A stretch of 64,000 nucleotides of DNA from an uncultured virus (IMG/VR IMGVR_UViG_3300027798_002855) (taxonomy: Duplodnaviria > Heunggongvirae > Uroviricota > Caudoviricetes), in the IMG/VR virus record IMGVR_UViG_3300027798_002855; one strand, written 5' to 3'. The position numbers and the translations under genes are program-made. Under the pieces are notes generated by a model. It made no database searches, was not told the DNA's origin, and saw only the letters and a program-made list of their open reading frames with translations. Position 1 is the first letter of the stretch; each line of letters begins with the position of its first letter. Positions 22,529 to 42,110 of this stretch are shown here, piece after piece.

Positions 22529-22549
22529 GTTTCTATTATATACCAAACA

Positions 22550-23545: not shown

Positions 23546-24980
23546 TGGTTTAATCTTACTATCTGCGTAATCTTGACTAGCCATGTTTACCATTCTGGCT
23601 TTTCCGCAGGGACAGGCAGGAGCCTTATGTATCTTATCCTCATCTAATGTAGTAACAATAGCCATGATGGTTTGACATTCAAGGCATTTAAACATCCATC
23701 TACTTTCTACCACGAGCAACCTCCGCTGCTAATATTCTCATTCCTAAACCATTTATCTGAGACGATGTGCCAAGATCGATTGATTCAATCTCTCTGGCTA
23801 TACGCTCACGCAATTCAGACTCTACGGCCACAATACTATTCCCGATAAGGCTCTGTGTTTGAGATCCGAAGTTCTTAGATACCTCGTTGTAAAAGTGTTT
23901 GCCAATGTCTGTAGTAATATCAAAGTTCATTGTCTTCAAACTCCATGTTGTATACCGTGCCCCATTTGTCATAGATAGGCCAAAGATTATCCCAAATCCA
24001 ACAATCTCTCTTAAATCTAAATCCACTTGTTTTGCCAGTTTCTTCATAGAAGGAAATACGAAGAACAGCTTTTGATGCAAAGTGTCCTGCTAGGTTTGCC
24101 ATCCACCTTAAAGGAGGGCGGGAGTTATCAATTCTAGTAGTCTTCCACTCTGGAACATCATCATCATAACGCATATGCTATTACCCCCAATAGAAATCCT
24201 ATAATAAATGCAGAACATACAAAAGTTGAGATAAATCGTTTTTCAAGCCATCGTTTAATTACGGCTCGTTCTATCTCACGATCCACTTCATAAACCACAT
24301 CATCAACTTTGTATTCTGTCATGACTAGCCTATCTCTTTAATGAGCCTTGCTAGAATATGAGTAGCCTCGTCAATTTCGTGAAGAGAGCCTGAAAAGATC
24401 AGTTCGTGTGCCTTTGTGATTTCTGTCTTTATATATTCGTTAGTAAGTTCCATCAAACCAGTATACCCTAAAAAAGCGGGGGAGTCAAACAAAAACCACT
24501 ATCAAAGTAAGTAAAGGAACAAACCACCATATATGCTTAATCACGTATCTGCCCATATAAGGTATCTGGTTTGTCAGGAATTGTGTTAGGAGTCTCATGA
24601 TCTGAGCATACGGGGTATAGTTTATGGCCAATTGACTTGATACCCTCGGACTTTTTAGAACAGAAATAGCATATGGCCATAAAGGCTTGACCGTTTTTGC
24701 GTATCTTGTCTAAGGCTTCTACAAGTCTCTTATCTTTATACCATTGGGTATGTTGGCTAGGCATATATTCCTCCTAGGAATAAGTATATCAGGCAGGAGG
24801 GTTTTTGTCTATTTCTTCTAATATTTTCTTAGCAAGTTCTTGGGCCTGAATATCTTTGTGTTTGGTTTTGAGATATGGGGATAGAAGGTTTGCTATCAGG
24901 TCTATCATTTCTTGATTCATATCTGGATATTTATTATACATTATTAATGAGCCGTTTTTCTCATACTCAGGAGACTGCAC
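23546..24980 (-). other. Cluster of short hypothetical ORFs (incl. 23700-23930, 23920-24174, 24537-24764)
   Basis: Abutting short minus-strand ORFs, some with CxxC. Confidence 0.55.
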
Positions 24981-25066
24981 TCATTTTTCTGTGGATAGGG
25001 TAGAGGCAAATGTATCAGATCCCTACTTTGTGGTTGTGGTAGATGATGGTTTAACCCATCACCTAT
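24945..25066 (-). ncRNA. Candidate small RNA (5' hairpin, 3' pseudoknot)
   Basis: TGATATACT promoter, stem UAGGUGAUGG/CCAUCAUCUA, pseudoknot at 24948-24974. Confidence 0.4.
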
Positions 25067-25082
25067 CTAATAGTATATCAGA

Positions 25083-25781
25083 TTAGGAATAGTCTTTGCG
25101 TACCCAATGATTTTTTTTATACCAGCCAGAAAATACTGAGCTAGATTTTTTACCATTTAGTATGCCCATTTTAAGAAGACCTTTTGATTCTTTTGATATC
25201 CAAGAATCTTGTTTAAATGGTATTAATTGGGCTACTGGAGTTCCTTGTTCTATAACTCCTTCAAAACCACTTTTAATATAAAAGGGATAAGAACCATGTG
25301 GATTTGTAACATACCCACCGTCTATTATTCCAGAAAGAGTGAAAAATGGAAGATCATGTCTATTAAGTGGATGAGTTAATAAAATACTATATCCTTTTGG
25401 AACTTGAAAAGCAACATTGGTATTCCATGTATATTCTATTGGATAACAGCCTGTTGGGACTAGTGAACTATCAGATACTTCATTTCTAAATCCAGGTGGG
25501 TTGCTCATGGTGCCCCATACAACATATGGCGCTCCGTTGTTATTTTTAACATAAATATCAGATGGCAGCAATAGCATATAGCCACTTGAAAGACCATTTA
25601 AAAATGGAACACATTGTTTTACTGTTAAATTAATGTTATTTTTAGAGTCTATTATTTCTCCATTTTTCCATTTTGGTATTTTTTTATACCAATTGGGTAT
25701 TACATTTTTAGACGGAACAAGTGTGTTTGGATATTCTTCTAGTGCTGATTCATATTTTATAGTTGGTTTTTTCTTAAACAT
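25083..25781 (-). CDS. Hypothetical protein, paralog of 47098-47808 (possible dUTPase-like beta-clip fold)
   Basis: KxCxP, GYS.L..PL, GTPxxQxIP. Confidence 0.75.
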   Translation of the reverse strand: MFKKKPTIKYESALEEYPNTLVPSKNVIPNWYKKIPKWKNGEIIDSKNNINLTVKQCVPFLNGLSSGYMLLLPSDIYVKNNNGAPYVVWGTMSNPPGFRNEVSDSSLVPTGCYPIEYTWNTNVAFQVPKGYSILLTHPLNRHDLPFFTLSGIIDGGYVTNPHGSYPFYIKSGFEGVIEQGTPVAQLIPFKQDSWISKESKGLLKMGILNGKKSSSVFSGWYKKNHWVRKDYS

Positions 25782-25817
25782 GTTTTAATTGTATCAGATA
25801 TGCCTGGATTTGTAAAG

Positions 25818-25826
25818 TTATCCACA
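25818..25826 (+). promoter_or_regulatory. DnaA box
   Basis: Perfect TTATCCACA, intergenic. Confidence 0.5.
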
Positions 25827-26187
25827 AATAAATCTTACTGATAAAAAAATGTTATACCAATGGTGGAGGAAAGTGGAGGGAGGTGGGGGATGGAGCGCTT
25901 TTGCTGAGGGGATCGTAATACCAAACCAAATATCCCAAACCACGTATCCACGATATGGGGCATATGATACACCAGATATAATGGTTTGTCAAGCCCTAAA
26001 TACCGCCCCAAAAATGTGTAGAAATGTAACAAAACTATAACAAAAAGTTATAAAACCTTTTAATAACAAACCAAAATATCTAGAAAAGTTAGAAAATGTT
26101 TTGTCTCTATATATGGGGGGATTAGGAATAGGGATCGTAATCTTTTTTATACCCGCCCCTGCGGGGCCGCCGCCTGCGGCGGGGTAT

Positions 26188-26216
26188 TTGACAAGGATCG
26201 TAATCCCTAGTATACT
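26188..26216 (+). promoter_or_regulatory. Sigma70/SigA-type promoter
   Basis: TTGACA-17 bp-TATACT. Confidence 0.75.
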
Positions 26217-26220
26217 TATA

Positions 26221-26296
26221 GTATTGAATCTGGCCTTGCAGTCATTGATTCAATATTTGGGATCTGGTTACCTTTCTGGCCAGGTCCCAATTTTTA
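26221..26296 (+). ncRNA. Candidate two-hairpin small RNA with terminator
   Basis: Follows the promoter; two long stems with G-U pairs; U-tract; no credible ORF. Confidence 0.55.
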
Positions 26297-26532
26297 TGGT
26301 TTGATATAGTCTAAACTTTCAGCGGGGGCTACGGTTTGAGGGTTCTTAATGTCTTTTTCAAAAAATGGGCGGGGATTCAAAGATACACATCAAACCTAGT
26401 ATAAGAGACATAAGGTTTATATAATACAAGGTTTGGGGATATAAGGTTTGGGATCGTAATGGTTTTTTAAGGTTTGAGATGTCCAGATTGTCTGGTTTGA
26501 TATGATATTACCCGGGGGGCCTAAAAGGATCT

Positions 26533-26802
26533 TTAGGGTTTTTTATCTGCTTTGAAAAGAACCTCGTCTAAATCTTCAAACCCTGTATCCTCAACCTCAA
26601 CGGATGCTAAAAATAAATCAAATGTTTCTGCTACATACTTAGCCCCATCAGGTCTTATATCGCATAGCCCCTCATTAGCAAGATAGGCTAATGGCAAACC
26701 AATATCATTGAACTCAAAGAATTGGTCTGCTTCCTCATCATCTTGATATCTAACATAGAACTCTCCTAGTATTACTATCTTATTAGAAAAGTCTGTCGTC
26801 AT
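26533..26802 (-). CDS. Hypothetical acidic protein
   Basis: NDIGLPLAY. Confidence 0.7.
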   Translation of the reverse strand: MTTDFSNKIVILGEFYVRYQDDEEADQFFEFNDIGLPLAYLANEGLCDIRPDGAKYVAETFDLFLASVEVEDTGFEDLDEVLFKADKKP

Positions 26803-27019
26803 AGTGTCCTCCCTGTTGGTAGTATTCTCTTACTTCTTTATTATACCTTGCCGATTCTAAAATCTCAAGTGCTCTTGAATAAGGCACATAGGGAATAGCG
26901 GTTGCCAAGTAGTAGCCAACTGCCTCTAAGTCTAAAGAAAAATCAGATACGAGTGTAGAAATCTTTTGGGCAACCTTCTCCTCTTTTGTAGGTGTAGCGT
27001 TGCGTTTGATTCTATACAT
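26783..27019 (-). CDS. Hypothetical protein
   Basis: GGAGG RBS before MYRIK. Confidence 0.7.
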   Translation of the reverse strand: MYRIKRNATPTKEEKVAQKISTLVSDFSLDLEAVGYYLATAIPYVPYSRALEILESARYNKEVREYYQQGGHYDDRLF

Positions 27020-27142
27020 AGTTCCTCCCATTGTATCAAATAAGTAGGGAGAGCGCAAGCCCCACACCTGCGCTCTACCCTTATATCACGTGAGGGACCC
27101 CACCCCACGCATTCAGCCTAGGTCACCACTCCAGGCTCTCAG

Positions 27143-27496
27143 TTAAACCTTTAAACTTAAATGATAATTAATAAAACTATCAAACTCATGAATGCCAGTT
27201 TCATCTTCTACAGTCTTATTAATTAAATCAATAGTGATATCTGGATGGTCTCCACCATAGTCCATACCGTGGCCATTACTGGCCCATAGACCAAAACCTG
27301 TCTCCTCTGTCCACTGGTCCCCAATCAGCTGAGACACAATGATACGGGTTGCATAGGATGTGTCATTCCGCCTAGGTTCTGCAGCCTGTAGTGCACGGGC
27401 AAGGTTAACAAATCTATCATAGCCACCCCAATGACTGTATAAATTTACAGATAAGTCTTTATCTTGTTTGATTGTGTAGACGATTCTATCTCCCAC
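27143..27496 (-). CDS. Hypothetical phage early protein
   Basis: MGDR..LYSHWGG. Confidence 0.7.
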   Translation of the reverse strand: MGDRIVYTIKQDKDLSVNLYSHWGGYDRFVNLARALQAAEPRRNDTSYATRIIVSQLIGDQWTEETGFGLWASNGHGMDYGGDHPDITIDLINKTVEDETGIHEFDSFINYHLSLKV

Positions 27497-27822
27497 TATT
27501 CATCATCTCCTACAAATTCGATAACAACTCTAGCAACTCGTCCGTCCTCATTCATTTCAGCATAGACAGGATAGAGCCCGTCGCCATAGCCAGTTGAGAA
27601 CACTACAGCGGTAGCCATACCTAACTCGCCATAGCCTTTTGTTATGGTAGCCTCACAAGCCCCAAGATAACTATACTCTCCTACTTTTTGTTTATGTAGT
27701 TCAAAGTCCTCAGCCTCATCATTCCAAGGCTCCCACTCATCAAGATAGCAAGGGTCGCCTACCATGGCTTGCCCACTATCAACAGAAAAATGTCCAATAA
27801 GGGTCATTTCTTTAGTATCCAT
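27496..27822 (-). CDS. DUF4241-like protein
   Basis: VDSGQ..GDPCY, STGYGDG.YPV. Confidence 0.7.
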   Translation of the reverse strand: MDTKEMTLIGHFSVDSGQAMVGDPCYLDEWEPWNDEAEDFELHKQKVGEYSYLGACEATITKGYGELGMATAVVFSTGYGDGLYPVYAEMNEDGRVARVVIEFVGDDE

Positions 27823-27945
27823 TTCTTTCCTCTCCTTTGGTGTTTATGTCAATTCTATCAAAATCCAGCGGTAATGTCAATTGCTGATAAATCCCTAATA
27901 GATCCAACTGTTGTTTTGCCTTTAATACATCTAATGATTCTATTA

Positions 27946-28197
27946 TCATGTACCGTCCCTTTCTGCGATTGCAAATGACAAGTCATATGTTAGTTTATAT
28001 AGATTTGTATAAGCGTCTAGCATACCTTCACAGTATGTCCTGTTCATTGAATCCATGGCCTCACCTGAGAGCTCTTCTATATCTGCAGCAGCCTCTAATG
28101 AGCGTTCAGCCTCCAGCATAAGATTTTTAAGCTCTCCATGTATGACATCAAGGCCTGATGAGCCCAGGTCAATCTGTTTCTGTAGATTGTCGTTCAT
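27946..28197 (-). CDS. Hypothetical protein
   Basis: ORF track. Confidence 0.65.
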   Translation of the reverse strand: MNDNLQKQIDLGSSGLDVIHGELKNLMLEAERSLEAAADIEELSGEAMDSMNRTYCEGMLDAYTNLYKLTYDLSFAIAERDGT

Positions 28198-28396
28198 CTC
28201 TTTCTCTTTCCTCTCCTATTTGTATAAAGTGACGGGTAGCAATAATCTGCCCACCTAACCAGTTAAACTCAAAATCTAATTCAGCATAGTCTTTAGAATT
28301 CATATCTAATGATTCCATTTGTTCTTTTACATATTCCTGGTCTTGTTCAATACTAACAAGATGTAGCTTCATATATTCTATCAAATAAGAACTCAT
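28169..28396 (-). CDS. Hypothetical protein
   Basis: ORF track. Confidence 0.65.
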   Translation of the reverse strand: MSSYLIEYMKLHLVSIEQDQEYVKEQMESLDMNSKDYAELDFEFNWLGGQIIATRHFIQIGEERERDERQSTETD

Positions 28397-28623
28397 TAGT
28401 CTACCTCAATATAATATTGGTCATCAGGATTCATATTGTAGAATTTATTAAATGCCTGTTTAATTTCTTTAGAATCAGACAATGAAGCAAATTGATAATC
28501 TGCATACAATGTACCCTCATCTAAATTAGAATCCATCCATTCAGTAAATAGATGTTCTGATATTGCTTGTATCTCATAATCAATAACCATTTGGTTAATG
28601 TTTGCTTCCTCTAGGAAACTCAT
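28396..28623 (-). CDS. Hypothetical acidic protein
   Basis: ORF track. Confidence 0.65.
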   Translation of the reverse strand: MSFLEEANINQMVIDYEIQAISEHLFTEWMDSNLDEGTLYADYQFASLSDSKEIKQAFNKFYNMNPDDQYYIEVD

Positions 28624-29369
28624 TTGATTTGGTCCCTTCTGTATTCTGGTAGATGTGCTTCGTCTAAGTATACTTTATGGGTATCACATTCTGCAACTGC
28701 CTCTAGGTCTGCCTCGCCTAGCCAGTTACACGATTCACATATCTGACCACATTCACTCTCACAATAATCTAATGTGTTGGTTGCTTCGCAATCTCTGCAC
28801 ATATTCTCATATCCAGAATCAGAAATCATTTCACCACGCAAGAACTCACACTCACCACCCCAACCTGTCTCTTCCTCATAAGATAAGGTAAAGAGCAATG
28901 TTGGATACTGACTAGATAGTTTAGCAATAGCAGGCATTGGCGGCGACCAAGCGGTATTAAAATTATAATAAACAACTAGATTCTCTCCATTAGGAGTAGG
29001 ACCTTCCATATATGTATCAGGATGTTCATTATCAGAAGATACAGCAATTTCCCATTTAGTTCCCCAGTTGCGGACATTCCATGAATACCAGTCATTGCCT
29101 TTGAACTGCATGGCTTCTTCAATTGGTAATTTATGGTCAGGCTGCCCTGAATACTCATACTCAGTAACACCGTCTTCAATATAGTTATAGATATTATAGA
29201 ATGCAAATACAGGATTTGGATAAGTAGTTAATTTCTTTTCCATTTGTCCAGTCTCCGTGTTCCATGAATCATGGACCATTTTGAATGGTTTATTAAGTTG
29301 TGCTACAAGGTCATTAACCTCTGACGGACTACCTTCTATAGTAAGTCCACTAAATACCCAATTAGGCAT
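28620..29369 (-). CDS. DUF1281/YubB ferredoxin-like-domain protein with C-terminal Cys cluster
   Basis: MPNW, WY.W...WGTKW, F.TAWSPP. Confidence 0.8.
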   Translation of the reverse strand: MPNWVFSGLTIEGSPSEVNDLVAQLNKPFKMVHDSWNTETGQMEKKLTTYPNPVFAFYNIYNYIEDGVTEYEYSGQPDHKLPIEEAMQFKGNDWYSWNVRNWGTKWEIAVSSDNEHPDTYMEGPTPNGENLVVYYNFNTAWSPPMPAIAKLSSQYPTLLFTLSYEEETGWGGECEFLRGEMISDSGYENMCRDCEATNTLDYCESECGQICESCNWLGEADLEAVAECDTHKVYLDEAHLPEYRRDQIK

Positions 29370-29447
29370 GGGGGTCCTTTCTGTTTGTCGTAATACAATT
29401 ATCCCAAAATCAGGGAATTCTGTCAATCTGTCGTAAAGTGATTTTGG

Positions 29448-29930
29448 TCACACCTTTCCCTCTACCCTCGTGGATTGGCATTCCATGCACTTAGGATCTA
29501 TAGGATCGTAGTACTCTTTATAGCCAACATCCTCCAACTCACCTGCGGCAGTATATGTGGCCTCGTTATAGGAATTCTCCATGAATGAGAACCTAGTTAC
29601 ATTATTACAATCTAAACACTTAGGCATCTGCACCCATCTCCCATGGCTCTACTTTATAGTTTGCACATATTTGCTCAATGCAATCTTCAAGTTCGGTAAA
29701 GAATAGGCCACCTTCATTGTCGTCAAAATGACTAATCATGTTGTCAGTTATCTTGAATTCCCATACTATTTTCATTGGACATGTCCTTCTGCTAACAGAC
29801 CTTCAAAGAAGTCCCATACTATTAGTAATTGTTTATAGTTTTGTTCATCCCCTTGGTTTTTGGCAGTATCAATAGCCCAAGTCAAACTATTACCAAATGC
29901 TTGTATATCTTGATATGTATAACCTAACAT
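29448..29930 (-). CDS. Three short coupled ORFs (29772-29930, 29620-29775, 29448-29633 Zn ribbon)
   Basis: Own translation; AGAAAGG RBS and promoter upstream. Confidence 0.6.
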
Positions 29931-30079
29931 AATTACCCTTTCTGTGGTAAATATATTGTAGCAAATTTTGGGGAAAAAATCAAACTATCGTAAAGAATTT
30001 TAGGTAAAAATATCATGGATCCCGGGGGGATTTTAAAAAAATTGAGCAGTTTATACTCTTACTCAGGAGTTGAATTAGA

Positions 30080-31090
30080 TTAAACTAATTCTAAAGTATT
30101 TTTTACAATACCTAGCAGACGATTTTTTTCTGCTGTAATTGTCGCATCAAAACCAGAAGCAGCAGCAAGCAGAGATTCGTTAGAATTACCACGAGCAGAC
30201 CTGTGCCAATCAAGGCGTTCAGTTAGAGCATTGAAAGCACCCCAAGCGGTATTGGCAATCATGCCATTAAACTCGCCTGTGTAAATATCATTGATTAAAT
30301 CAATTTTATTTTCCCACTTCTTTGATGAGCCTTTAGAATCTTTATCAGGCTTAGGATAAGCAGCAAGAACAATATCATTGAACTGTTGCGCTGTGATTTC
30401 TTTTTCAATCATAGCCTTAGCCATAACATCAAAAGAATCCATATAAGCATTAGCAAGACCAAGGGCCTCACGAGCAATTTGGACTTTACCATTAGCGGTC
30501 TGTGTGTGGCGAATCTTGAAAGATTGCTTGATTTTATTCTTCTTAGAACCAAGCGCAAGATTAAGAGTGTTAGCGCATACAACACGCACTGGTGTGATAC
30601 TTGCTTGAATAGCAATAGAGCCATCATGTGATGTATTGATAAGTAAATAAGTTTTTACCTTATCTGCCACACCATTAGGGTCTAATACTGTTTCACGCTC
30701 AAGAGCAAGAGAGCCAAATACAACACGCCCTCCACGAATAGAGCCAGCGGTTTCCCATCTGCCTCCACCATCTAGGATATTATCACCAAATGAGAATAAG
30801 TCCTCATTTTGTAAAACATGATAACGCTCACCAACAACACCTAAAATATCTGTCTGAGAGTTATTTGTAGGATTTGTCCTAACAACATACTGATATTCTT
30901 TATCTGATGATAAAGTATTTGGAATCTCAACATCAACTAATCTAACATTCCAATTATTTAGATTAGCAGCAGCAAGCATTTCTGCTGTGGTTTTTTCATC
31001 TGTGAATACTGTGCCTAGACCATGCCAAGCAGGCTCACGCAATGAAGCAAAAGAAGCAACGCCATTTTGCGTTTCTAACTCATGTGCCAT
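30080..31090 (-). CDS. DUF932 (phage/plasmid-like TIGR03299) protein
   Basis: MAHEL..PAWHGLG, ETAGS..GG, NTSHDGS, TPVRVVCANT. Confidence 0.9.
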   Translation of the reverse strand: MAHELETQNGVASFASLREPAWHGLGTVFTDEKTTAEMLAAANLNNWNVRLVDVEIPNTLSSDKEYQYVVRTNPTNNSQTDILGVVGERYHVLQNEDLFSFGDNILDGGGRWETAGSIRGGRVVFGSLALERETVLDPNGVADKVKTYLLINTSHDGSIAIQASITPVRVVCANTLNLALGSKKNKIKQSFKIRHTQTANGKVQIAREALGLANAYMDSFDVMAKAMIEKEITAQQFNDIVLAAYPKPDKDSKGSSKKWENKIDLINDIYTGEFNGMIANTAWGAFNALTERLDWHRSARGNSNESLLAAASGFDATITAEKNRLLGIVKNTLELV

Positions 31091-31270
31091 TTTTATTTCC
31101 TTTCTATTTGTTTAGACAATCATATCAGGTGGGTCTGACAATGTCAATTCATACTATTAAGAATCTGGGCAAAACGGACATCGTTCTTAAACTTGACAAA
31201 AGATCTTTTTGCCCCCCGGGATTTTGGAGAGCAGTTTTAAGACATGCTCAGGTCTTGGATAGCCCCACTA

Positions 31271-31735
31271 TCACACGTTATAGATATTATCTATCTCAAC
31301 ACCTACTTCTCCGTCATATGAATTTAGTTCAGCATAAACATTTAAGTCAATGTCGCTAACCTCAAAATTAGCAACTTCATCTAACGGAACTAATATTGTT
31401 CCTGTGATTGTGGCGGTAGCCTCAAACTGAATTTCCTTAGTAGGATTAAATCCAAAGATACTACAAATATCAGCAACGATTTCCTCTGAACCCATATCAA
31501 GGTAATCAGGTAGGCGACTTTCTAACAGACCTACTCCCTGAGTATATCTATTAAGTTCTCGTCTTTCTCTGCGGTGTTGATGTAATTCCCACTCAAGGTC
31601 GCTAACCTTTACTGTGGGATACCAATTTGTATAGTCTGTTTGGTGTGCCTCAGAATCAATAATCTTATAGGTCACGATTTGATTTGGGTTGTAGTGGTTT
31701 GGCACTACTATTTCATTAGTTGTTTCTGTATTCAT
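31271..31735 (-). CDS. Hypothetical protein
   Basis: ORF track. Confidence 0.7.
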   Translation of the reverse strand: MNTETTNEIVVPNHYNPNQIVTYKIIDSEAHQTDYTNWYPTVKVSDLEWELHQHRRERRELNRYTQGVGLLESRLPDYLDMGSEEIVADICSIFGFNPTKEIQFEATATITGTILVPLDEVANFEVSDIDLNVYAELNSYDGEVGVEIDNIYNV

Positions 31736-31997
31736 TTAAGAGTTCCTCTCCTACTGTATCCATTTCTTTAATGGTATCCATCATATCGTTTAACTGTTCC
31801 TCTGTCAATAGTGCGTGGGTCACTAAGGTTGTTGTCATAGCAGAGAGCATAGCGGAATAGTTATACATCTCTTTGATAAAACTTTCATCATCTACTTCAT
31901 TTCTGATACTGACAATGTGTTTCACAATTTCCATTATCATGTCATCATGAACTGCGTCTCTTGACGCTTCTTGTAATTTAATAGCGGTTGCTATCAT
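31716..31997 (-). CDS. Hypothetical helical protein
   Basis: AGAAAGG RBS before MIATA. Confidence 0.7.
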   Translation of the reverse strand: MIATAIKLQEASRDAVHDDMIMEIVKHIVSIRNEVDDESFIKEMYNYSAMLSAMTTTLVTHALLTEEQLNDMMDTIKEMDTVGEELLNEYRNN

Positions 31998-32228
31998 GGG
32001 GCGTTCCTTTCTTTTGGTTATACCCAAGTCTATCAAAAATATAGGAAAAATACAAATCGTGTCTTAAACCAGCTATGTGATCATTATCACATTTCCCGGG
32101 GGGCGCAAAAAAAATAAGCAGTTTTAGTTCATGCTTAGGAACTGTATGCCTCGCTATAGCACTGGCAGGGACATTTGGTTGTGGCTGGGGGAATTCCGAT
32201 TACACACCCGAAACCAGCCACAATTCTA

Positions 32229-32396
32229 TTAGTGTGTTTTTACCATAGCAAATCTTGTTTGATTATTTGCCAAGCGCAACATTACTTTAGTGACATTACG
32301 AGTTTGTGGGACAAACTTTTCAATGCGACCTGTAATACCTGTTTTGCTTGTTGTAAATAAATCACCAAGTTGGTATCTGTATCCTCCAAGTGTCAT
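32229..32396 (-). CDS. Small SH3-like beta protein (55 aa, not in track)
   Basis: YQLGDLFTTSKTGITGRIEKFVP; AGAAAGG RBS. Confidence 0.7.
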   Translation of the reverse strand: MTLGGYRYQLGDLFTTSKTGITGRIEKFVPQTRNVTKVMLRLANNQTRFAMVKTH

Positions 32397-32471
32397 TTAC
32401 TTTTCCTTTCTGTTAGGGGTTTTTGTTGAGCAGTTTTAGTTGTCATACTCAGGACATTTAGCGTTTGCTAA

Positions 32472-32891
32472 TTATAGATAACGAGCGATAGCATTATAGG
32501 TGCTAGTGCTAACTACTTCCTCATCTGTCATTTTGAGAATACGAATTGCGTTCTCAATTTCATCTACCATTTCCTTGTATTGCCACTCATTGTAAGTGTC
32601 AAAATCTTTCTGAGGTTCATCAGGTAGAACTATACTTCCACTAGGTAAGTTGAAATCTACATTTATAGTGCCATTGTAGCGAACATTGGCAGATAAATCT
32701 GTTGCCTTGCTTATTTGAGCAAGTGCTAACTTTCCTACTTCTTTGTTGTATTTCTCTTGCGCCTTTGAGAACTTTTCCTCATTGACTTTTTGATTAGCCT
32801 TATCCTTTTGGATTTGGGCTAGTTTTGCTTCTAGAGCCTTTATGACTTTAGTTGTAGCGATTTTTACGCTAATTGCTTTTCCTCTTGACAT
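32472..32891 (-). CDS. Hypothetical coiled-coil protein
   Basis: ORF, own promoter and AGAAAGG RBS. Confidence 0.75.
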   Translation of the reverse strand: MSRGKAISVKIATTKVIKALEAKLAQIQKDKANQKVNEEKFSKAQEKYNKEVGKLALAQISKATDLSANVRYNGTINVDFNLPSGSIVLPDEPQKDFDTYNEWQYKEMVDEIENAIRILKMTDEEVVSTSTYNAIARYL

Positions 32892-32977
32892 AATTACCTT
32901 TCTGTGTAATTTATTGGTGGGCTATTATTTTAGCATTTTTAGGTGGGATAGTCAATTTGGCTACCCCACCCATTTGA

Positions 32978-33142
32978 CTACTTAGATTTCCAAGTTGTCC
33001 AACGAGTTGCGCCATTTACATCAAGTTTAACGCGAACTGTGTCCTTGTTGGTTGGCACGATTTCCTTGATAACACCTGTCACCTTAGACTTCTGTGAGGT
33101 GTAAGTGTCGCCGACCTTGTAAGTTGCTACTGCTACTGACAT
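32978..33142 (-). CDS. Small SH3-like beta protein (54 aa), paralog of 32229-32396
   Basis: YKVGDTYTSQKSKVTGVIKEIVP; AAGGAG RBS; TTGACA promoter. Confidence 0.7.
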   Translation of the reverse strand: MSVAVATYKVGDTYTSQKSKVTGVIKEIVPTNKDTVRVKLDVNGATRWTTWKSK

Positions 33143-33386
33143 TGTTTCTCCTTTGTTAGTTGTTTTTTCATTACTGTATTATTATCGCATTTTTGGTATT
33201 TATTGTCAAGTCCTATACCCTAAAAATCTCATTATTTGAGATTTGTGAGGTAAGTCACTAATTGCCCATTCCCGAAAAAACTAGCAGTAGGCATGTGACT
33301 CCTAAGATTATTAGTAATTCCACGATTCCCCTTTCTGTCCTTGATTTTATCATTTTGCGGGGGTATTGGTCAAGTCCCCCTAGATC

Positions 33387-34106
33387 CTACTTCTTCTTAG
33401 CAGAGAAAACTATATTAGCCTTGTTATCAATACATAGAGAGCAGACTACGCAAGCAGAGCCCTCTTTAGATATTAGTGGAATAGCCTTTTTATTTTCAGG
33501 GCATTTAGCTCCAGGCTTACCTATCATCTCTTTCATATCTGCCTGACCAATTGCGAAGGTATCAGCAAGGTATGCTAATTTAACTCCAGTATCTTTATTT
33601 AATTTAATAGCAATTTTTTTATTCTCGCTATCTGTGGAATAGTATAGAGATAGATTATCAATACCCTTAAGAATATTGACCGCAGAGGCTACTCTTGTAT
33701 ATACCCAAAACTTTATATCAGAATTATTAAGGATGATATGCTTCCAGGCGAAGGCATAAGTATCATTGAAAAAGTCTCCGTCCCAATGGATACGAAATAA
33801 TTTAGGAGCATTGCGCTTATCACAATCAGCCTTAAAATCATTTATCATATCTTGCAATAGGTCTTCCATAGTATCGTGGTCAGCGTCTTTTAATAAATTC
33901 CAATTATGAATTAGGTTTTCTCTTACGCCTTTATATACTCTTTCAAGTTTTCCTGCGTAGCAAACACTTTCACAAACACTAGTGGCACCAGGGCACGAGT
34001 AAGCCTTGCCAGCAGGCAGTCCAAAAGTGTTGGCGATTGTTGCGGTTTTTCCATTGGGTGATACGGCATTAGCGACCTTTCTATCGTTAGAGCGTTTTAG
34101 TTTCAT
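33387..34106 (-). CDS. Gp88-like (radical-SAM-related) phage protein
   Basis: FGLPA..SCPGA..C...CYA, FRIHWDGDF, YTR. Confidence 0.8.
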   Translation of the reverse strand: MKLKRSNDRKVANAVSPNGKTATIANTFGLPAGKAYSCPGATSVCESVCYAGKLERVYKGVRENLIHNWNLLKDADHDTMEDLLQDMINDFKADCDKRNAPKLFRIHWDGDFFNDTYAFAWKHIILNNSDIKFWVYTRVASAVNILKGIDNLSLYYSTDSENKKIAIKLNKDTGVKLAYLADTFAIGQADMKEMIGKPGAKCPENKKAIPLISKEGSACVVCSLCIDNKANIVFSAKKK

Positions 34107-34141
34107 AGGGGTCCTTTCTTACTTCCTAGAATAACATTTTT

Positions 34142-34270
34142 TTAATCTTTTGTCAATTTTTTATGCTTGGTTTTGCGGGAATAAATTTTCTTGTTCCTTA
34201 ATGGCGTGGCAGCAGAAGACCTACGTAATTCCATTAATCTACGTAATTCTTCTCTAGGTTTTTTCCACAT
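34142..34270 (-). CDS. Small basic protein (42 aa)
   Basis: ELRRSSAA.P..NKK.YSRK.KH; leaderless. Confidence 0.55.
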   Translation of the reverse strand: MWKKPREELRRLMELRRSSAATPLRNKKIYSRKTKHKKLTKD

Positions 34271-34334
34271 AAAATAATCTTATCATAAAAATATCATAAA
34301 AGCAAATCGGACAAATCGGGCGCCCCGGGGGCTT

Positions 34335-35299
34335 TTATTCTAAAATATACAATTCAAATTTTTCATTATCAAAAATTTCAACATCTTCTTTTTCATCAAA
34401 CTCATTATCAATGACAAGAGCGAACCCATCTTTAGTTGGAGTAATTGAAATAATTTTTACAATACCAATAATGCCTAAACCAATTAGATCTCCTACTTCT
34501 AATTGGTCAGCATTAAGAATATCTACAAATCTGTAATCCATAGAAATTAGTGTATCAGACATTTATTTACCTGATACCCTTCCGTCACGATAAAAAATCT
34601 TAGTAATCATTTTACCTGATGGCTCTGAAAAATTGTAGGTTGCGTATTCATTAGCAAATCCCCAATCCTTTATTTTATCCCACTCGCCAACTGCGCTAAT
34701 TGCGTCAGAATAACGACCAACCCAATAAGGGGCTTTATCGTTATCATAGGTTGCGGTAATTGCGTATAAGTATTCCATTTTAGTATTCCCTTTCAATAAG
34801 CCACGCATTTAGGTGGTGTTGCTCAATAATAGCCCAAGCAGGGGCGGTAGTCAAACCCTTATAGGTTATTCCTTCAGGCATAGGTATTTCTAAATCCCAA
34901 AGTCCAGCGTCATTAACTGCGTCTATGGCTTCAACGCAAGGAGCAACCATAGAGCGGGGAACGGGCGGGTAATGATTAGCAGATAGGTGAATTGCTATCT
35001 GACTTTCAATTTCAAGATTATCAGCAAGGGCTAAATCGTGAGCAAAAATACTTCCCATTTTAGTTAGCCTCTCTACTAGCAAAGATACTGAGATTATAGA
35101 AATCTTTAATTAGTTCAGGCTCGCTTAGCAAACCATTATCCCAAATTACATCTCCGTCATCATCTAAGATTAGTTCATAGGGATTACACTCGCAAACCTC
35201 AAAATCAAAATCCTCGCCAATTCCCCAATACAAATTACCTTTACCCTCGCAAGCATTACAATTGCGAATTGTGTTTAACGCGTATTCTACTTTATCCAT
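34335..35299 (-). CDS. Operon of four short hypothetical ORFs (35060-35299, 34780-35058, 34563-34778, 34335-34562)
   Basis: Abutting ORFs; the first has CNAC.G.G..CEC. Confidence 0.65.
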
Positions 35300-35394
35300 T
35301 TTTCTTTCCTTCTTTCTGTTTAATACTGTAAGCCTATCAGATAGGGCTGACATTTCCAAATCTGCCACGCCCTGTCCGATATGTCCGTTTTGTC

Positions 35395-35892
35395 CTACCA
35401 AGAACTCTGATAGTAGAAAGACAATTCCTCAAACTCAGGCAGATTAATTAGCCTTCTCAATTGCTTTCTAGTATCCTCAATATCTCGCCAATACCACTCA
35501 TCAATATCTGTTCCACCAAAGAAAAATCCTTCTGTTGGCGGTAGCAAATTAGGGTCCTTATTAGTTATAGCCAAAGCACAAAGTGTTTCTAATTCTCTTA
35601 TCTTAGTATTGGATACATAGTATTCTCCACAATTATCCTCGCCACCTTGAATATTCTTTACAAACCAATTGTGTATCTGATTACACTTGCGCCAATAGCA
35701 GACATTTACTGACACATCTACACCATAGATACCTTCTCTATCTGCGAGGGTAGCCAAACCAGCACTATCTACTACATTATCCCATTGTGGATAAGTAGCC
35801 TGTGAATACTTAGTATCGCTATCACGATCAAGTAAATCCCAATTTACTTTTTTAATGTGCTTTCTAGCACTCATATACATATCTAATCCCAT
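35395..35892 (-). CDS. Widespread phage early hypothetical protein
   Basis: MGLDMY, YWRK.NQIH.WF, FYYQSSW. Confidence 0.8.
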   Translation of the reverse strand: MGLDMYMSARKHIKKVNWDLLDRDSDTKYSQATYPQWDNVVDSAGLATLADREGIYGVDVSVNVCYWRKCNQIHNWFVKNIQGGEDNCGEYYVSNTKIRELETLCALAITNKDPNLLPPTEGFFFGGTDIDEWYWRDIEDTRKQLRRLINLPEFEELSFYYQSSW

Positions 35893-35893
35893 T

Positions 35894-36058
35894 TTACTGT
35901 TCCTTCTTTCCAAAAACATTTTCCATTATATTTAAGTTTTCCTCTGTTAGAAAACTCTGTGCGCTTCCCCATAAGCCATAAATATAGTTATCACCATATT
36001 TTTCTTTAGCTAATTTTTCAATATTAGCAATTCTTTCCATTTTTTCAATAACTGTCAT
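35894..36058 (-). CDS. Hypothetical protein (54 aa)
   Basis: AGAAAGG RBS; YGLWGSA. Confidence 0.55.
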   Translation of the reverse strand: MTVIEKMERIANIEKLAKEKYGDNYIYGLWGSAQSFLTEENLNIMENVFGKKEQ

Positions 36059-36183
36059 TTTAGTTATCCTTTCTTTATTTTCAGGCTTCTAGCCTATCAT
36101 TTTCTACTGACAAAATCAAATTAGACACGCCCAAAAACTGTGAGAAAATTCACAAGCCCCGTAAAGTGCTACGTAATTCACAT

Positions 36184-36204
36184 TGTGGATAACCCTGTGG
36201 ATAA
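36184..36204 (-). promoter_or_regulatory. Tandem DnaA boxes
   Basis: TGTGGATAA twice, 3-bp spacer. Confidence 0.7.
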
Positions 36205-36416
36205 CCCCCCCGGGGCCTTGCAACTCTAACTATTTAAATTAAAGTTGCAATTTTGAAATCAAACTTTTATTTGATTCCATTTCATTTCAGCATTTTTTTT
36301 TCGCAATTCTCTGTTTTCATTTTCTAATTTTCTAAGTGTAATTAGTCCGTGAAATGTTATTCCAATTAAGCCAACGAGAGCAATTATTATTGCGATTACA
36401 TCAGTTGTTAAAAGTG

Positions 36417-36868
36417 TCATACGGGAATTAGTCCTATCTCATCAACACCGCAAGCCTTCTCAAATCTTGCGAAGTCAAATCTATCATTGTCAGACTTGAA
36501 AAATTGTGAAAACTCCTCTACCAAATCCTCAAAAACTTGCGGGTGGATTTCCTCGCTGAAACCTTTTAGAATTTCAGCGGTTTTGACATAGTCTTTTCGT
36601 GTCATCATTAGTTAGACCCCTCATCTAATAGAATAAATGCGTGAGTTCCACCATTATTTATTTTAGTTAGTGCTATTAGCAATTCATCTTTAGTTAGAAA
36701 TGAAGCGTCACCTACCAATTCGGTTAGTGCTTGAATATTTAATTCAGCAAATGCGCCAGCAGGCAGGCTCTCAATACTAGATAGAAATGGAGAGTCAGAA
36801 TAAACTCTTGAAACGAATTTTACTCCGTTAGTTGTAAATGGGAAATCTTTATAGGTTGTGTTAGTCAT
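36417..36868 (-). CDS. Two short hypothetical ORFs (36608-36868, 36417-36608)
   Basis: Coupled; MTRKDY..DN.RFD..RF..AC. Confidence 0.7.
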
Positions 36869-36996
36869 AGTTAGTTTTTACCTTTCTTGGTGTTTGTGTT
36901 ATTTACTATTTTAGCGATTTTCTCTAAGTTTGTCAATTCTTGCGCCTTGCGCTGGCTCTCAATAAGAGCCTTGAATTCGTGTAGTTTCATTGGAGA

Positions 36997-37203
36997 TTAC
37001 TCTCCAACTTTAACTGCTAGGGTAGCCCAATAATCTCGGGAAGCAAATCTGAAGCGAATTGCGTAGGCTTCATAGCCCTCAGATAGATAGACATTATCTC
37101 GCTTCTCAGCGTAGTTAATTTCTCCACCCATAAATCTCCTGCTCATAGAGCGTGGATAGTAGAACTTGCCAACTAGCAAGTCTGGAATTGAGTATGATTT
37201 CAT
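36997..37203 (-). CDS. Hypothetical protein
   Basis: AGAAAGG RBS, own promoter. Confidence 0.65.
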   Translation of the reverse strand: MKSYSIPDLLVGKFYYPRSMSRRFMGGEINYAEKRDNVYLSEGYEAYAIRFRFASRDYWATLAVKVGE

Positions 37204-37315
37204 TTTAAGTTATCCTTTCTAAGATACTTTCTAATAGTTCTATTATTTCATTTTTTAGCGTAAAAGTCAAATTAGACCCACGCTTGGTGAGTGTGAGGTT
37301 AATCACACCTTCCCC

Positions 37316-37513
37316 CTAGTTAGGGAGAATGTCTATTCCGTAGTATTCTACGGCTTCAACTATGTTAGTCATACCCTTATACTCACGACAAGATACGCAT
37401 ACCGCGTTCCAACGATCATAAGTAGTTGAGCAGAACACGCAGATTTTATCTTGAAAATTAAAGTTATTTTCAATTAAGTATTCTATTACTTGATTTTTAT
37501 CTAGTGTAGTCAT
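37316..37513 (-). CDS. Zn-finger-like protein
   Basis: CVFC..CVSCREYKG. Confidence 0.65.
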   Translation of the reverse strand: MTTLDKNQVIEYLIENNFNFQDKICVFCSTTYDRWNAVCVSCREYKGMTNIVEAVEYYGIDILPN

Positions 37514-37546
37514 TTTAAGACCTACCTTTCTTTTTAGTGTGTTAAC

Positions 37547-37615
37547 TTATTTGCTCTTATCTTATTTGCTAGGCTCACCTTTCGGATTATTTGCTAGGCT
37601 CATTTAAGAGGCTCA
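37547..37615 (-). repeat. Short direct repeats in 5' leader
   Basis: TTATTTGCT x3 and AGGCTCA x3 (16-mer TTATTTGCTAGGCTCA x2). Confidence 0.8.
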
Positions 37616-37925
37616 TTTAACACTATTTATTTTTTCTTATACTAGAATTATAACAGGGGGGTCTGACATTTTGAGAGAACAAATCAGGATAAATCGGACA
37701 TTCTGAAAAACTATTTTTGTGATAGTAGTCACAAATAAACTATGACAAATCGGACACCCCCCGGGGACCGACACGCCCGAACGCGGGGGTGGGAAAAGTG
37801 TGACCAACACCACAAAAATACTTTGCGACACGCCGTGTTTAGATTTGATTTTGTCGGTCTGCTCTGTTATACTTCCCGTATTAGATAGTTAAAATATAAC
37901 TACTAAACGAAAGGTAAAAACTAAA

Positions 37926-38758
37926 ATGATAAGCGATTTTTTTGGAAATACATTGGACTCAGTGTCAGACTTCTTTGGAAATATTACAGACTGGGCAGAT
38001 GATGCTTTAGCAAGTGGGCCATGGCCAGCATTTATTGGCGTTGCCATATGCGTGATTATAGGTATAGCCACCCTTTAGGGTGTGACCTAAATCACAGGGA
38101 TTACCCCACAGACACCCCCCAAAATGTCAGTGGCAACAGATAGAATTACAGGTATAACAAAAAGAAAGGTTAGGTAGCAAAAAATGCTAACACTAAATTA
38201 CACAGTATCTAAAGAGGATACTATACTTACAACATCAGATAGGCTGATGATAAATGAGCGTCAAATAAATGACCTTATGGATAGCCTAGTGGCTTACGGA
38301 TTTACAGTAGAGGCTATGTCAGTAGCCCCTGCTACACTTTAAGAATTAAGAAAGGATAAACTAAAATGATAAACGCAATAGAAAGAATAAATTGTGATGA
38401 GTGTTATGGACACGGACTTATTTTCTACGGAGATGAGAACAACTATGACACAGAACCTTGCGAGTGTGTATGACCTACACACTAGAGCAACAACTGCGCC
38501 TAGCGTGGATAAATAAAAATGGTAGCCCCAAAGGTTATCACCAAGCAACACAACAACAGAAAGAACAGGTGTTAAATGAAAATAACGATAACTAGTATGA
38601 GTGGCAAAGAAATGAAAATGGATTTGCCTACTAAAGAAAATGTCTATTACTTTATAGACCTATACAAAAAATCTCTAAAGAAAAATCAACGAGTAAAAAT
38701 TACTTGCGATTTATTAGGTATTGACGGATATTTACAAGGCACTGCTTCTAGTAAATAA
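37926..38758 (+). CDS. Four short rightward early ORFs (37926-38078 TM, 38184-38342, 38366-38473 Zn, 38576-38758)
   Basis: Own translation; GAAAGG RBS before the first three; PafBC-type promoters. Confidence 0.6.
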
Positions 38759-38775
38759 ACCGCTATAAATAGCCC

Positions 38776-38814
38776 TAGTGCGATCTCTCCAATAGTGGTC
38801 GCACTATTTTTTTT
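38776..38814 (+). terminator. Intrinsic terminator
   Basis: TAGTGCGATC...GGTCGCACTA + T8. Confidence 0.85.
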
Positions 38815-38909
38815 ATTTTATTTTTTCAAATCATGCATCATACACTTTAGCAAAATATTCAGATTTTCCCAAAATGAAAAATTTTTCAGATTTCGGGTAT
38901 AATAAATAC

Positions 38910-39107
38910 ATGCCAAACCCCACACCCTGTATCCATGTATTTGAATATGTTCATCGTGAAACATGCCCCCATTGTGGGCGGTATACCCATGAACCCGATC
39001 ATAACCTTAACTCTAAACTCTTTAAAGAATTCTACCTATCAGACGAACCTAAAAAATACATATGCCCAATAGATGGGGGAACCATAAGAGGCTGGTGGTC
39101 TATATAG
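38910..39107 (+). CDS. Small Cys/His protein
   Basis: CPHCG, CPID; leaderless. Confidence 0.55.
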   Translation: MPNPTPCIHVFEYVHRETCPHCGRYTHEPDHNLNSKLFKEFYLSDEPKKYICPIDGGTIRGWWSI

Positions 39108-39260
39108 ATCTATTTTCCATATTTATTAATTATACTCAATATACCAATACATATACAAATAGCCAGAGACATGTTTATAACAAATTGCAACATATAGCCA
39201 TTATATAGCAAAACTATACAAAAAACAATATATATGCTACAATTATATAAAAGGGAAAAT

Positions 39261-39767
39261 ATGGACATTCAAATTATAGACGATTTCTTAGATAAAGACA
39301 GTTTTGAAAATATCAAAAATACCATGCTTTCAGAAAACTTCCCATGGTTCTATGTGCCCAGAAAAACAAATGGTTATGACTTTAATGAGAATTTTCAGTT
39401 TGTTCATATTTTTTATATACGTCATTCAATAAACTCAAACCATTCTCAAATTCTTAATCCATTAATAGATAAAATTGATGCACTTGCTTTAGTAAAAATT
39501 AAAGCAAATTTAACAGTAAAAACCAAAGAAATTATTGATTATGGATATCATACAGACTATATAACAGATAGCAAACTTTATACAGCAGTTTACTATATTA
39601 ATAGTAATAATGGATCTACTAATTTTGAAAATGGTCCAAGCGTAAAATCTAAAGAAAATAGAATAGTCATATTTGACTCTCAACTTCGTCATAGTGGCAC
39701 TAGTTGTACAGATGAGCGTTTGAGAGTATTGATAAACTTGAACTTTTATAAAAATCCATCTAACTAG
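39261..39767 (+). CDS. 2OG-Fe(II) oxygenase-like protein
   Basis: HTD, YYIN..NG.T, NR.VIFD...H, R.LIN. Confidence 0.8.
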   Translation: MDIQIIDDFLDKDSFENIKNTMLSENFPWFYVPRKTNGYDFNENFQFVHIFYIRHSINSNHSQILNPLIDKIDALALVKIKANLTVKTKEIIDYGYHTDYITDSKLYTAVYYINSNNGSTNFENGPSVKSKENRIVIFDSQLRHSGTSCTDERLRVLINLNFYKNPSN

Positions 39768-39852
39768 ACAATTTATCTGGCATTGGATAAAGTCTATAAT
39801 CTACAAAGAATAATTTTTCGGGGGACATTGAAAAACCAGGGTATATAAAAAA

Positions 39853-40059
39853 CTACCACTTCCCAATCGGACATTTAGCTTCTTCTAAACTCGTCTTTAA
39901 CTTCATAAAACAACCACACTTTCTACATTGTTCCGTACGAGGTTTAAAATATTCACATGCTCTACATATGGCTAATCTAGCTTCCTTTAATTCTTCGCCA
40001 GACCTTGGCTTATTTGGATTTAATAGATCCCAGGGTTTGACTTCACGTTCTTTATCCAT
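39853..40059 (-). CDS. DUF6171-like Cys-rich protein
   Basis: RLAICRAC..CRKCGCFM..K...CPIGKW. Confidence 0.75.
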   Translation of the reverse strand: MDKEREVKPWDLLNPNKPRSGEELKEARLAICRACEYFKPRTEQCRKCGCFMKLKTSLEEAKCPIGKW

Positions 40060-40187
40060 ACTTGCCATTATACATTACAAACCAGGATATTGACAATACT
40101 TTGAATATTTTATTCATATCTTTGTCAGGGATGGTTTGTTGTTCTTTTTGCGCTTCCCGCCGAAAAATATGTTATAATTTTATCACT

Positions 40188-40415
40188 ATGACGCCAACAG
40201 ACTGGGCAGGATTAACACTTACAATTCTAGGAATCCTAGGAACCGTCGGCGTAGTGATGAGGTGGATCTTGAAAAAATATGTAGAAGAGATAATGAGCGA
40301 ACTAAGGCCAAATTCTGGATCTTCAATGAAAGACCAAATTACAAGGCTTGAAACCAAAACCGATAAACTCTATGATGCTATCTTGATTCACCTTGAAGAT
40401 CACGCTAATAAGTAA
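40188..40415 (+). CDS. Small membrane protein
   Basis: TM helix then PNSGSSMKD. Confidence 0.7.
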   Translation: MTPTDWAGLTLTILGILGTVGVVMRWILKKYVEEIMSELRPNSGSSMKDQITRLETKTDKLYDAILIHLEDHANK

Positions 40416-41059: not shown

Positions 41060-41150
41060 GTTTACCTGCCGTTGTTAAAATTAAAGATACACGCACCGAT
41101 GTTTCCCCTGTTATTAAGGTAAACGGAAAGATCTATAAGGTGTCACGTTA

Positions 41151-42076: not shown

Positions 42077-42110
42077 GAATGTGCTATAATAATTTGCATA
42101 AGGAGATCCC

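Follow-up and report, generated by a model that had tools for sequence, protein, structure and literature searches.

Early-unit boundaries of freshwater phages carry a genome-specific, mostly palindromic word that switches as a set between close relatives

The Streptomyces phage phiC31 carries conserved inverted repeat (CIR) operators of about 17 bp that are bound by the phage repressor, and phage T5 carries site-specific single-strand nicks that are not known to be tied to unit boundaries. In Cluster A mycobacteriophages such as L5 and Bxb1, two reports describe stoperators, 13-bp asymmetric sites lying mostly in one orientation and bound by the monomeric immunity repressor of these temperate phages, with the bound protein halting the elongating polymerase (PMC6550527; PMC9283540). 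Here we analyse seven short runs of C followed by G (CnGn boxes, numbered 1–7) in the early region of an uncultured Caudoviricetes virus (IMG/VR record IMGVR_UViG_3300027798_002855). The window (W) is the whole stretch analysed, 64,000 bases long; G and L numbers denote related virus records and loci, and X numbers denote sequencing runs.

Several lines of evidence indicate that the boxes are genuine and that their sequence matters. First, an exact scan of the 64,000 bases found CCGG at precisely seven places, every one within a CnGn box (Table 1), against expectations of 80.4 from base composition (37.7% G+C) and 54.8 and 45.7 from Markov models of order 1 and 2, respectively. CCCGGG, with 1.5–2.8 copies expected, is likewise present seven times. 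All seven positions and run lengths listed in an earlier note, made by eye from the sequence, were thus confirmed, as was its claim that CCGG is missing elsewhere although dozens of copies (46–80 by the models above) would be expected. The seven CCCGGG copies lie in spacers, and related genomes have 4–10 copies of their motif each. By open reading frame (ORF) calls made crudely for this analysis, six boxes are intergenic, as that note had said of all seven, and box 7 overlaps a 64-amino-acid (aa) ORF with a GTG start (37637–37831) that is probably spurious. Genes lie on the minus strand from about 24 to 37.8 kb and on the plus strand beyond about 38.1 kb; box 7, described earlier as sitting at the divergence point, is about 400 bases from this switch, so that the description was roughly right. 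Asymmetric forms (C6G3 against C3G6) occur in either orientation.

Second, the boxes recur in independent material. Contigs from run X3, whose sample and study differ from those of the likely source, span all seven with 0–4 differences, and in run X12 boxes 6 and 7 are each one base shorter. The collinear relative G003, about 86–94% identical to the window, has seven boxes at homologous places (C3G6, C4G4, C6G3, C3G5, C4G5, C6G5 and C4G3 for boxes 1–7), and G002, about 70–77% identical, has eight that are nearly bare CCCGGG; the record of G001 does not include the region and stands outside this comparison. Neither relative has a CCGG outside its boxes (7 copies against 48.8 expected in G003, 8 against 14.7 in G002), and CCCGGG-type boxes occur in 10 of 80 IMG/VR loci from many samples. 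Two-colour sequencing chemistry can yield homopolymer C/G runs, and the earlier note had asked for contig joins to be checked and had named absence from relatives as a refutation; with the boxes spanned in X3 and kept in G003, G002 and the ten loci, we rejected an assembly, adapter or poly-G artefact, the probability of which is practically nil. Because box lengths differ between the window, G003 and G002, the constant part is CCCGGG, with homopolymer lengths that drift. An idea that each box of about 9 bases folds as a mini-hairpin (3-bp stem and triloop) was dropped, as the boxes of G002 have just 6–7 bases. A near-identity search of the phage collection with the window gave no match, and a scan of the collection with AAACTGCT-N-CCCGGG, which returned mainly chance matches (2 of 116 loci being relatives), was abandoned.

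Third, the boxes belong to a wider set of words. Using the protein of the DUF932 gene as anchor, we took 80 loci with 82–100% identity out of 383 IMG/VR matches and assigned word classes by eye; loci of one lineage are not independent, and classes recur at several positions of the tree. At the site homologous to box 3, behind the same hairpin, other members of the family have CCTAGG, GACGTC, CACGTG, TTCGAA, CTCGGG, GGCGCC, GCCGGC, GCGGACCGC or further words, and each genome repeats its single GC-rich, mostly palindromic word at its other boundaries. Copies per genome number 5–10 for CCTAGG (1.6–2.6 expected), 4–9 for GACGTC (0.4–1.3), 5–8 for CACGTG (1.5–2.1), 5 for GGCGCC (0.5) and 6 for GCCGGC (0.9); overall, a palindromic hexamer is enriched (4–10 copies against 0.4–2.6 expected) in at least 27 of the 80 loci. 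There are at least ten word classes, specific to the genome and variable between relatives, and many words differ by a single substitution. The non-palindromic words CCCCGAG, CCCGACCC, CCTCCCG and GGCCGCCCC are present in both orientations, so that no word, palindromic or not, shows the one-orientation bias of stoperators.

Fourth, words switch in concert. Between L183 (CCTAGG) and L185 (CACGTG), flanking DNA is 78–91% identical and the word is different at every site, over five aligned sites and two or three at matching coordinates, including those after tRNA-Asp and before a DnaA-box-like pair. Mapped onto a DUF932 tree with 65 distinct genes, 11 word groups require 36 changes (minimum 10); shuffling the groups over the tree gave a mean of 45.2, and none of 200 shuffles was as low as 36. 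The sequences that flank one box bear no relation to those around the other boxes of its genome. Copying between sites therefore does not explain the uniform word, which must be read by something. Judged from these sequences, the boxes of the window are one allele of a family-wide switching word system. A full-text literature search, which did not extend to subscription journals, found no prior description of switching boundary words.

These properties can be compared with those of the operator sets described above. The phiC31 CIRs resemble them as palindromic operator copies between early genes of an actinophage; unlike the CIRs, the box word switches between close relatives, and a box-binding protein was not found. 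With stoperators, the boxes share many intergenic copies of one short motif that is genome-specific and drifts between relatives (PMC6550527; PMC9283540). They differ in being 6–11-bp, GC-only palindromes that are free in orientation and restricted to some 11 kb of early genes, and a repressor was not found for them.

Fifth, the core of the word is purged from the early region of genomes that use it. We compared observed over expected counts of each core 4-mer, with boxes masked, from 7 kb before to 5 kb after the DUF932 gene, between genomes of the word's own class and all others. The ratio was 0.08 (n=13) against 0.85 (n=55) for CTAG (p=1.5e-8), 0.05 (n=11) against 0.23 (n=57) for ACGT (p=2.7e-6) and 0.11 (n=9) against 0.25 (n=59) for TCGA (p=0.03); CCGG outside boxes was at 0 in its own class and in the others. 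The early region of G004, a CCTAGG genome, has 10 CTAG (6 of them boxed) where about 40 are expected and other genomes have about 40, and the purge is milder outside the early region. For CCGG, the window and G003 can be aligned over 37,278 bases at 87.8% identity: comparable GC-rich 4-mers are 29–50% window-specific (GGCC 16 of 34, CCGC 35 of 91, CCCG 19 of 65), and no new CCGG has arisen outside boxes. Because other such words turn over and CCGG never arises unboxed, selection against CCGG in the window is still active. All nine CCGG of the 100-kb G012 genome are likewise inside its boxes. Across the 80 loci (1.30 Mb), CCGG occurs 115 times against 807 expected, 68 of these being CCCGGG, and is absent from 63 loci; ten of twelve near-complete relatives also lack it. 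The inference that selection acts against the word generally and for it at the boxes is thereby upheld, and none of the roles that had been proposed with it is established.

Sixth, the boxes occupy a fixed place in the early units (Table 1); promoters and terminators here are predictions from a consensus scan and from folding. Along the transcribed (minus) strand, a hairpin and A/T run is followed by the box, operator-like repeats and a sigma-70-like promoter, which agrees with the earlier placing of the boxes between the end of one unit and the promoter of the next. The order of hairpin and A/T run, word, and repeats or promoter is also found in G002 and in the CCTAGG and GACGTC genomes. T/A runs, a feature of intrinsic terminators, lie at boxes 2–4, where a common cctgag..aaactgctc hairpin with a compensatory change is present that recurs across relatives. 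Compared with shuffled sequences, only the hairpin upstream of box 6 stands out, the other six having z scores from +1.3 to −0.85. The TTATCCACA repeats behind box 6 are of a kind we take to be DnaA-box-like; those behind boxes 5 and 7 are of CCGATTTGTC type (TGTCCGATTTGTC at box 7), and tgtgat..atcaca inverted repeats are also present. The TTTTCCCAA spacer motif of the promoter-like element of box 2 is common to G002. Strong predicted promoters that no hairpin precedes have no box; the boxes therefore mark unit boundaries and not promoters as such. An Rfam search of positions 24000–40000 gave no match.

Table 1. Boxes and associated features of the window
Feature	Position	Strand	Form or sequence	Remarks
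Box 1	26511..26519		C3G6, CCCGGGGGG	Past last gene of an early unit on minus strand; CCGG at 26512
Box 2	30021..30029		C3G6, CCCGGGGGG	Hairpin/T-run of DUF932 gene on one side, next promoter on other; CCGG at 30022
Box 3	31212..31220		C6G3, CCCCCCGGG	Upstream of promoter for DUF932 unit; CCGG at 31216
Box 4	32095..32103		C3G6, CCCGGGGGG	CCGG at 32096
Box 5	34323..34331		C4G5, CCCCGGGGG	CCGATTTGTCCGATTTG repeats next on minus strand (family D14); CCGG at 34325
Box 6	36205..36215		C7G4, CCCCCCCGGGG	CCGG at 36210
Box 7	37757..37766		C6G4, CCCCCCGGGG	Earliest box along early transcription; CCGG at 37761
Strong hairpin directly 5′ of box 6	36218..36250	-		-20.1 kcal/mol, z -3.2
Conserved hairpin and T-run 5′ of box 2	30044..30075	-	cctgag..aaactgctc type	Family D2; weak predicted stability
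Paralogous copies of cctgag-type hairpin	31229-31260; 32116-32147	-		
Two repeats directly 3′ of box 6	36184..36204	-	TTATCCACA	Pair also behind boxes in G002 and many lineages
Sigma-70-like promoter downstream of box 3	31119..31147	-	TTGACA N17 TATGAT	Consensus scan
Promoter-like element downstream of box 2	29955..29984	-	TTGATT..TTTTCCCCAAAA..TACAAT	Family D3
DUF932 gene	30080..31090	-		Between boxes 3 and 2; anchor for collecting relatives
Acidic zinc-ribbon protein gene	29448..29633	-		61-aa ORF; 59 aa counted from MPKC
Acidic 89-aa protein gene	26533..26802	-		Last gene before box 1; variable family in most relatives

In relatives, the DUF932 gene is immediately followed by a gene for tRNA-Asp (L132, 10950–11024; L183, 11060–11134; L210, 11062–11136), and a box stands behind that gene at a distance of a few to about 50 bases; no tRNA gene is present in the window.

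The boxes are very probably cis sites at which a sequence-specific agent reads the DNA as a duplex, an agent that does harm when its word lies in early genes, because nothing else covers uniformity, concerted switching, free orientation and purge together. A structural GC clamp that sits past the T-run without any reader and slows RNA polymerase or walls off promoter melting would fit boxes that are GC-only, lie behind T/A runs, have free run lengths and occur in either orientation. It fails on the identical word at all sites, the concerted switching and the purge of the core elsewhere, for which we rejected it as very improbable.

As to the nature of the agent, we tentatively favour, with a probability of roughly 0.4, boundary sites that are read by a class-specific factor and act as roadblocks or insulators. 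Each box would be a cis-acting boundary, set in the spacer that separates an early unit's end from the operators and promoter of the next unit. The putative factor would read a short GC-rich palindrome as duplex in either orientation, here the core CCCGGG with run lengths left free; once bound, it would block transcription running on through the weak upstream terminator and shield the promoter that follows, a mode of action that may be likened to the multi-copy operator sets of actinophages. One word would serve all boundaries of a genome, and word and reader would change together between close relatives. From the observed position, uniformity, concerted switching and purge of the core in the early region, we infer that a protein binds and that it acts as a roadblock. 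The purge from the early region of a word's own class is the pattern expected if a site is harmful inside transcription units, and with just one of seven upstream hairpins clearly stable there is room for help from a bound factor. A roadblock is favoured by analogy, on account of the fixed place after weak terminators, the operator-like post-terminator repeats of a cultured relative, the Streptomyces phage Jay2Jay, and the stoperator precedent.

Several observations weigh against this reading. The distance from box to −35 element varies from about 26 to 64 bases, and termination and promoter use are predictions only. CCTAGG persists in three late ORFs of G004. The boxes of G012 have only CCGG in common, with variable G/C flanks, and a shared core of just four bases looks likelier as a restriction-type specificity than as an operator. 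No sequence-reading factor was found in 10 kb on each side or, at family level, in the 12 near-complete genomes; a DNA-binding Pfam domain is lacking from all 73 representative early proteins; and among 45 core early families no alignment column tracks word type cleanly. The proteins that are tied to a word class, described below, are all strongly acidic and so ill-suited to DNA binding.

A comparison of gene content with word class identified one protein by a wide margin. The zinc-ribbon ORF was flagged by whole-genome comparison as present in the window, G003 and G012 only. In a six-frame search its profile matched, at E ≤ 2.7e-26, all ten CCCGGG loci, four of the five loci with other CCGG words and G002; the missing locus (L194) ends before the expected place of the gene. 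None of the 65 loci with non-CCGG words matched, the next best E value being 1.3. The resulting association with CCGG words (14 of 15 against 0 of 65, p=1e-14; 12 of 13 against 0 of 55 when loci are unique) was by far the best of 300 families. BLAST on called ORFs had detected the gene in just six loci, and a search by identity pattern over 10 kb on each side had given no CCCGGG-specific protein. The protein has two CxxC pairs, a net charge of −5 to −13 and an isoelectric point of 4.1–4.4, and is predicted to fold as an all-beta zinc ribbon (predicted local distance difference test (pLDDT) score 92.2). Its profile had no match among PDB sequences; one weak fold match stood above the rest, the anti-CRISPR AcrVIA2 (Foldseek E 0.23; Z 4.2, next 2.8; root-mean-square deviation 3.3 over 56 residues). 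Predicted self-pairing scored 0.78 (best control 0.00), with partner pLDDT of at least 92 and at least 97% of contacts agreeing between runs, a mark that 20 of 30 solved pairs attained, as did 1 of 23 single chains. By this modelling the protein is probably a dimer. The strand predicted to pair, residues 12–27, is where the proteins of CCCGGG-type genomes differ from those of genomes with other CCGG types.

A 92-aa acidic protein (L207, 14434–14712, and homologues), a distinct relative of the 89-aa protein family, is in turn found in eight of nine TCGA-word loci and in none of 59 others, directly upstream of a paralogue of about 90 aa that is itself the last gene before a box. The CTAG and ACGT classes yielded no class-specific protein, and the comparison turned up no nuclease gene that goes with a word class. 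The zinc-ribbon, 89-aa and 201-aa proteins (the last described below) had no match in a PHROGs search. Among the candidates discarded were a 54-aa CDC-motif protein and the acidic family of about 90 aa, which do not track word type; a link of ‘fam213’ to CTAG genomes, which came from a false ORF running through the box itself; and the ParB-like and Lsr2-like early proteins of Jay2Jay, which have no BLAST relative in the freshwater phages.

The words are also those of restriction enzymes: CCCGGG is the site of SmaI and XmaI, CCGG is that of HpaII and MspI, and other word classes also equal type II sites. Avoidance of such sites is extreme in the family. In the 12 near-complete genomes (G004–G015, 98–120 kb), CCGG is absent from ten (G012 has 9 copies and G014 a few, at an observed-to-expected ratio of 0.04), CGCG from eight (6 copies in G012; ratios of 0.01–0.09 in G013, G014 and G015) and AGCT from ten, each of which would be expected to have about 330–400 (G007 has 418 copies, a ratio of 1.07, and G014 a ratio of 0.15); G007 and G013 have no TCGA at all. 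The window is intermediate, with 42 AGCT (about 224 expected), 12 TCGA (about 59) and 4 CGCG (about 40). Such site loss across the family makes the retained CCGG boxes of the window more striking, and it indicates, as far as the sequences tell, a family living under heavy restriction pressure and responding to it through the loss of sites. The sequence of the boxes is identical to that of type II sites, and no cognate methylase was found: neither C5 (PF00145) nor N4/N6 (PF01555) DNA methylases were detected in 13 phage records, in a search that did not extend to other methylase families, nucleases or the host. Of the roles suggested earlier, methylation by the phage is therefore unlikely. T5 nick sites resemble the boxes, from the sequence alone, in that a few set positions carry a short GC-rich word and the genome, of about 100–120 kb, has an early region of many small units; unlike them, as far as is known, the boxes are tied to early-unit boundaries.

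Depletion has a further, local component. Only in the early region (26000–38100 in the window, and the homologous regions of G003, G004, G006, G007 and G012) is GATC scarce, with a depletion of about three-fold: the window has 15 copies against 41 expected inside this region and 182 against 178 outside, and its early region is also poor in GTAC (3 against 41) and ACGT (5 against 41). Early-region DNA, this pattern suggests, is more exposed to restriction than the remaining genome. All four CGCG of the window lie inside its early region (33031, 35279, 37403 and 37782), as do all eight AGCT of G003 (39375–48962; L135–L136), none being found in the remaining ~50 kb; the early block and the rest of the genome may differ in history. 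A 201-aa protein is found only in the two TCGA-free genomes (G007, 69992–70597, or L235:9992–10597; G013, 12915–13517). It had no Pfam match, and one possibility is that it is a phage-borne TCGA-specific nuclease, for which it is a candidate.

This background bears on a second account of the agent, the main rival to a roadblock, in which the boxes are kept targets of a restriction-type enzyme of host or phage, nicked, cut or held as decoys, and the inhibitor of that enzyme is a small, acidic, class-specific dimer (in CCGG genomes, the zinc-ribbon protein). The words are classic palindromes of 4–6 bases, reduced to CCGG in G012, and the purge of the core from a class's own early region, the site avoidance and the lack of PF00145 and PF01555 methylases all fit it. 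The zinc-ribbon protein, with its strict association, acidity, predicted self-pairing and weak anti-CRISPR fold match, and the 92-aa protein of the TCGA-word genomes would be the matching inhibitors. This account fits the four-base core, the acidity and the restriction background better than a roadblock does. It has to explain sites in the first-expressed DNA that would be lethal under restriction and offer no evident benefit, the lack of a word-linked nuclease gene, the late CCTAGG copies of G004 and the CTAG and ACGT classes without a specific protein, and we consider it possible but somewhat less probable than a roadblock. A variant of it would have the phage keep the word of the current enzyme at each boundary together with a matching acidic, dimeric inhibitor, so that the enzyme becomes a harmless, site-specific clamp or nickase or a decoy-bound sink and word and inhibitor are swapped together on a change of host strain; this we hold to be unlikely.

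Gene order in the early region varies, and the boxes might instead be joints at which early-gene cassettes are exchanged by recombination at the shared word, within or between genomes, as the earlier note had also proposed. The order of gene units differs between the window and G002, similarity between the window and G003 is lost exactly at boxes 1, 2 and 7, and variant contigs break at 26519 (26519→26683 in X3) and at 37756. In the CCCGGG class, 20 of 546 BLAST alignment ends come within 10 bases of a box, a zone that takes up 1.1% of bases. This excess is no more than the general intergenic expectation and is absent from other classes (20 of 1,288, 12 of 456 and 0 of 98; about 1% of bases). 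The sole clean deletion joint (30067→32512) falls in repeated hairpins and not in boxes, and words switch in place with both flanks kept, which exchange at a box cannot bring about. The crossover role thus has a few joints at boxes 1 and 7 in its favour and no excess of breakpoints over intergenic DNA, and is improbable. The deletion itself, in a contig of run X15, skips 2,444 bases (30067–32512) between two cctgagta-type hairpins, and with them the DUF932 gene, two more genes and boxes 3 and 4, which shows loss of a cassette through repeated hairpins.

The PeSL (promoter/stem-loop) cassettes of T4-type phages offer a described parallel. They too are repeated, composite terminator–promoter modules; they lie beside small early genes, in a variable region where cassettes are gained, lost and reordered (PMC2839356; PMC4122927). 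PeSLs act through homology of the whole module (PMC2839356; PMC4122927). In the box modules the flanks differ and just the 6-base word is uniform, switching as a set. Of the joints observed around the boxes, some lie at boxes 1 and 7 and one in hairpins, with no clear excess of alignment ends.

The near-complete relatives, 98–120 kb in length, encode a portal, a prohead protease, a 3,240-aa tape-measure protein, a DnaE-type polymerase, DnaB, DnaG, RecA and a class II ribonucleotide reductase. The early genes for DUF932 and GP88 proteins are about 50–53% identical to terminal-region genes of Streptomyces phages such as Jay2Jay, and DNA of the window was found in freshwater, sediment and drinking-water runs from 18 studies. 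From the affinity to Streptomyces phages, our guess is that the host may be a low-GC freshwater actinobacterium. In Jay2Jay (L257, 1–10800), a UUCG-type terminator hairpin is present in nearly every early spacer, and behind it comes a CCCGGACA or TGTCCG-N3-CGGACA-like repeat; the half-site TGTCCG also occurs beside boxes and promoters in the freshwater phages.

Away from the boxes, the window has a large sugar-modification cluster (10742–23478) with several glycosyltransferases, an NAD-dependent epimerase, two FkbM-type methyltransferases and a ferredoxin-like gene, inside which lies an HNH endonuclease gene (20900–21502). At 25080–25830, runs X12 and X15 carry a form that lacks 749 bases, namely the gene for a 232-aa protein at 25083–25781, which is paralogous to a gene at 47098–47808; both match phrog_7084. 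The RNA runs X15 and X16 were used as assembled contigs, and their coverage of the region is not evidence of expression.

Freshwater phages that are common, with 383 related stretches in IMG/VR, thus have a regulatory ‘punctuation mark’ that is uniform in each genome and replaced as a set. A cis word and its putative reader would here co-evolve rapidly in a way that is visible from sequence alone, and the family would offer a natural series of matched word and reader pairs for studying how DNA-recognition specificity switches. The word is linked, unexpectedly, to the avoidance of restriction sites, and word class may serve as a simple marker for sorting uncultured phages into functional or host groups.

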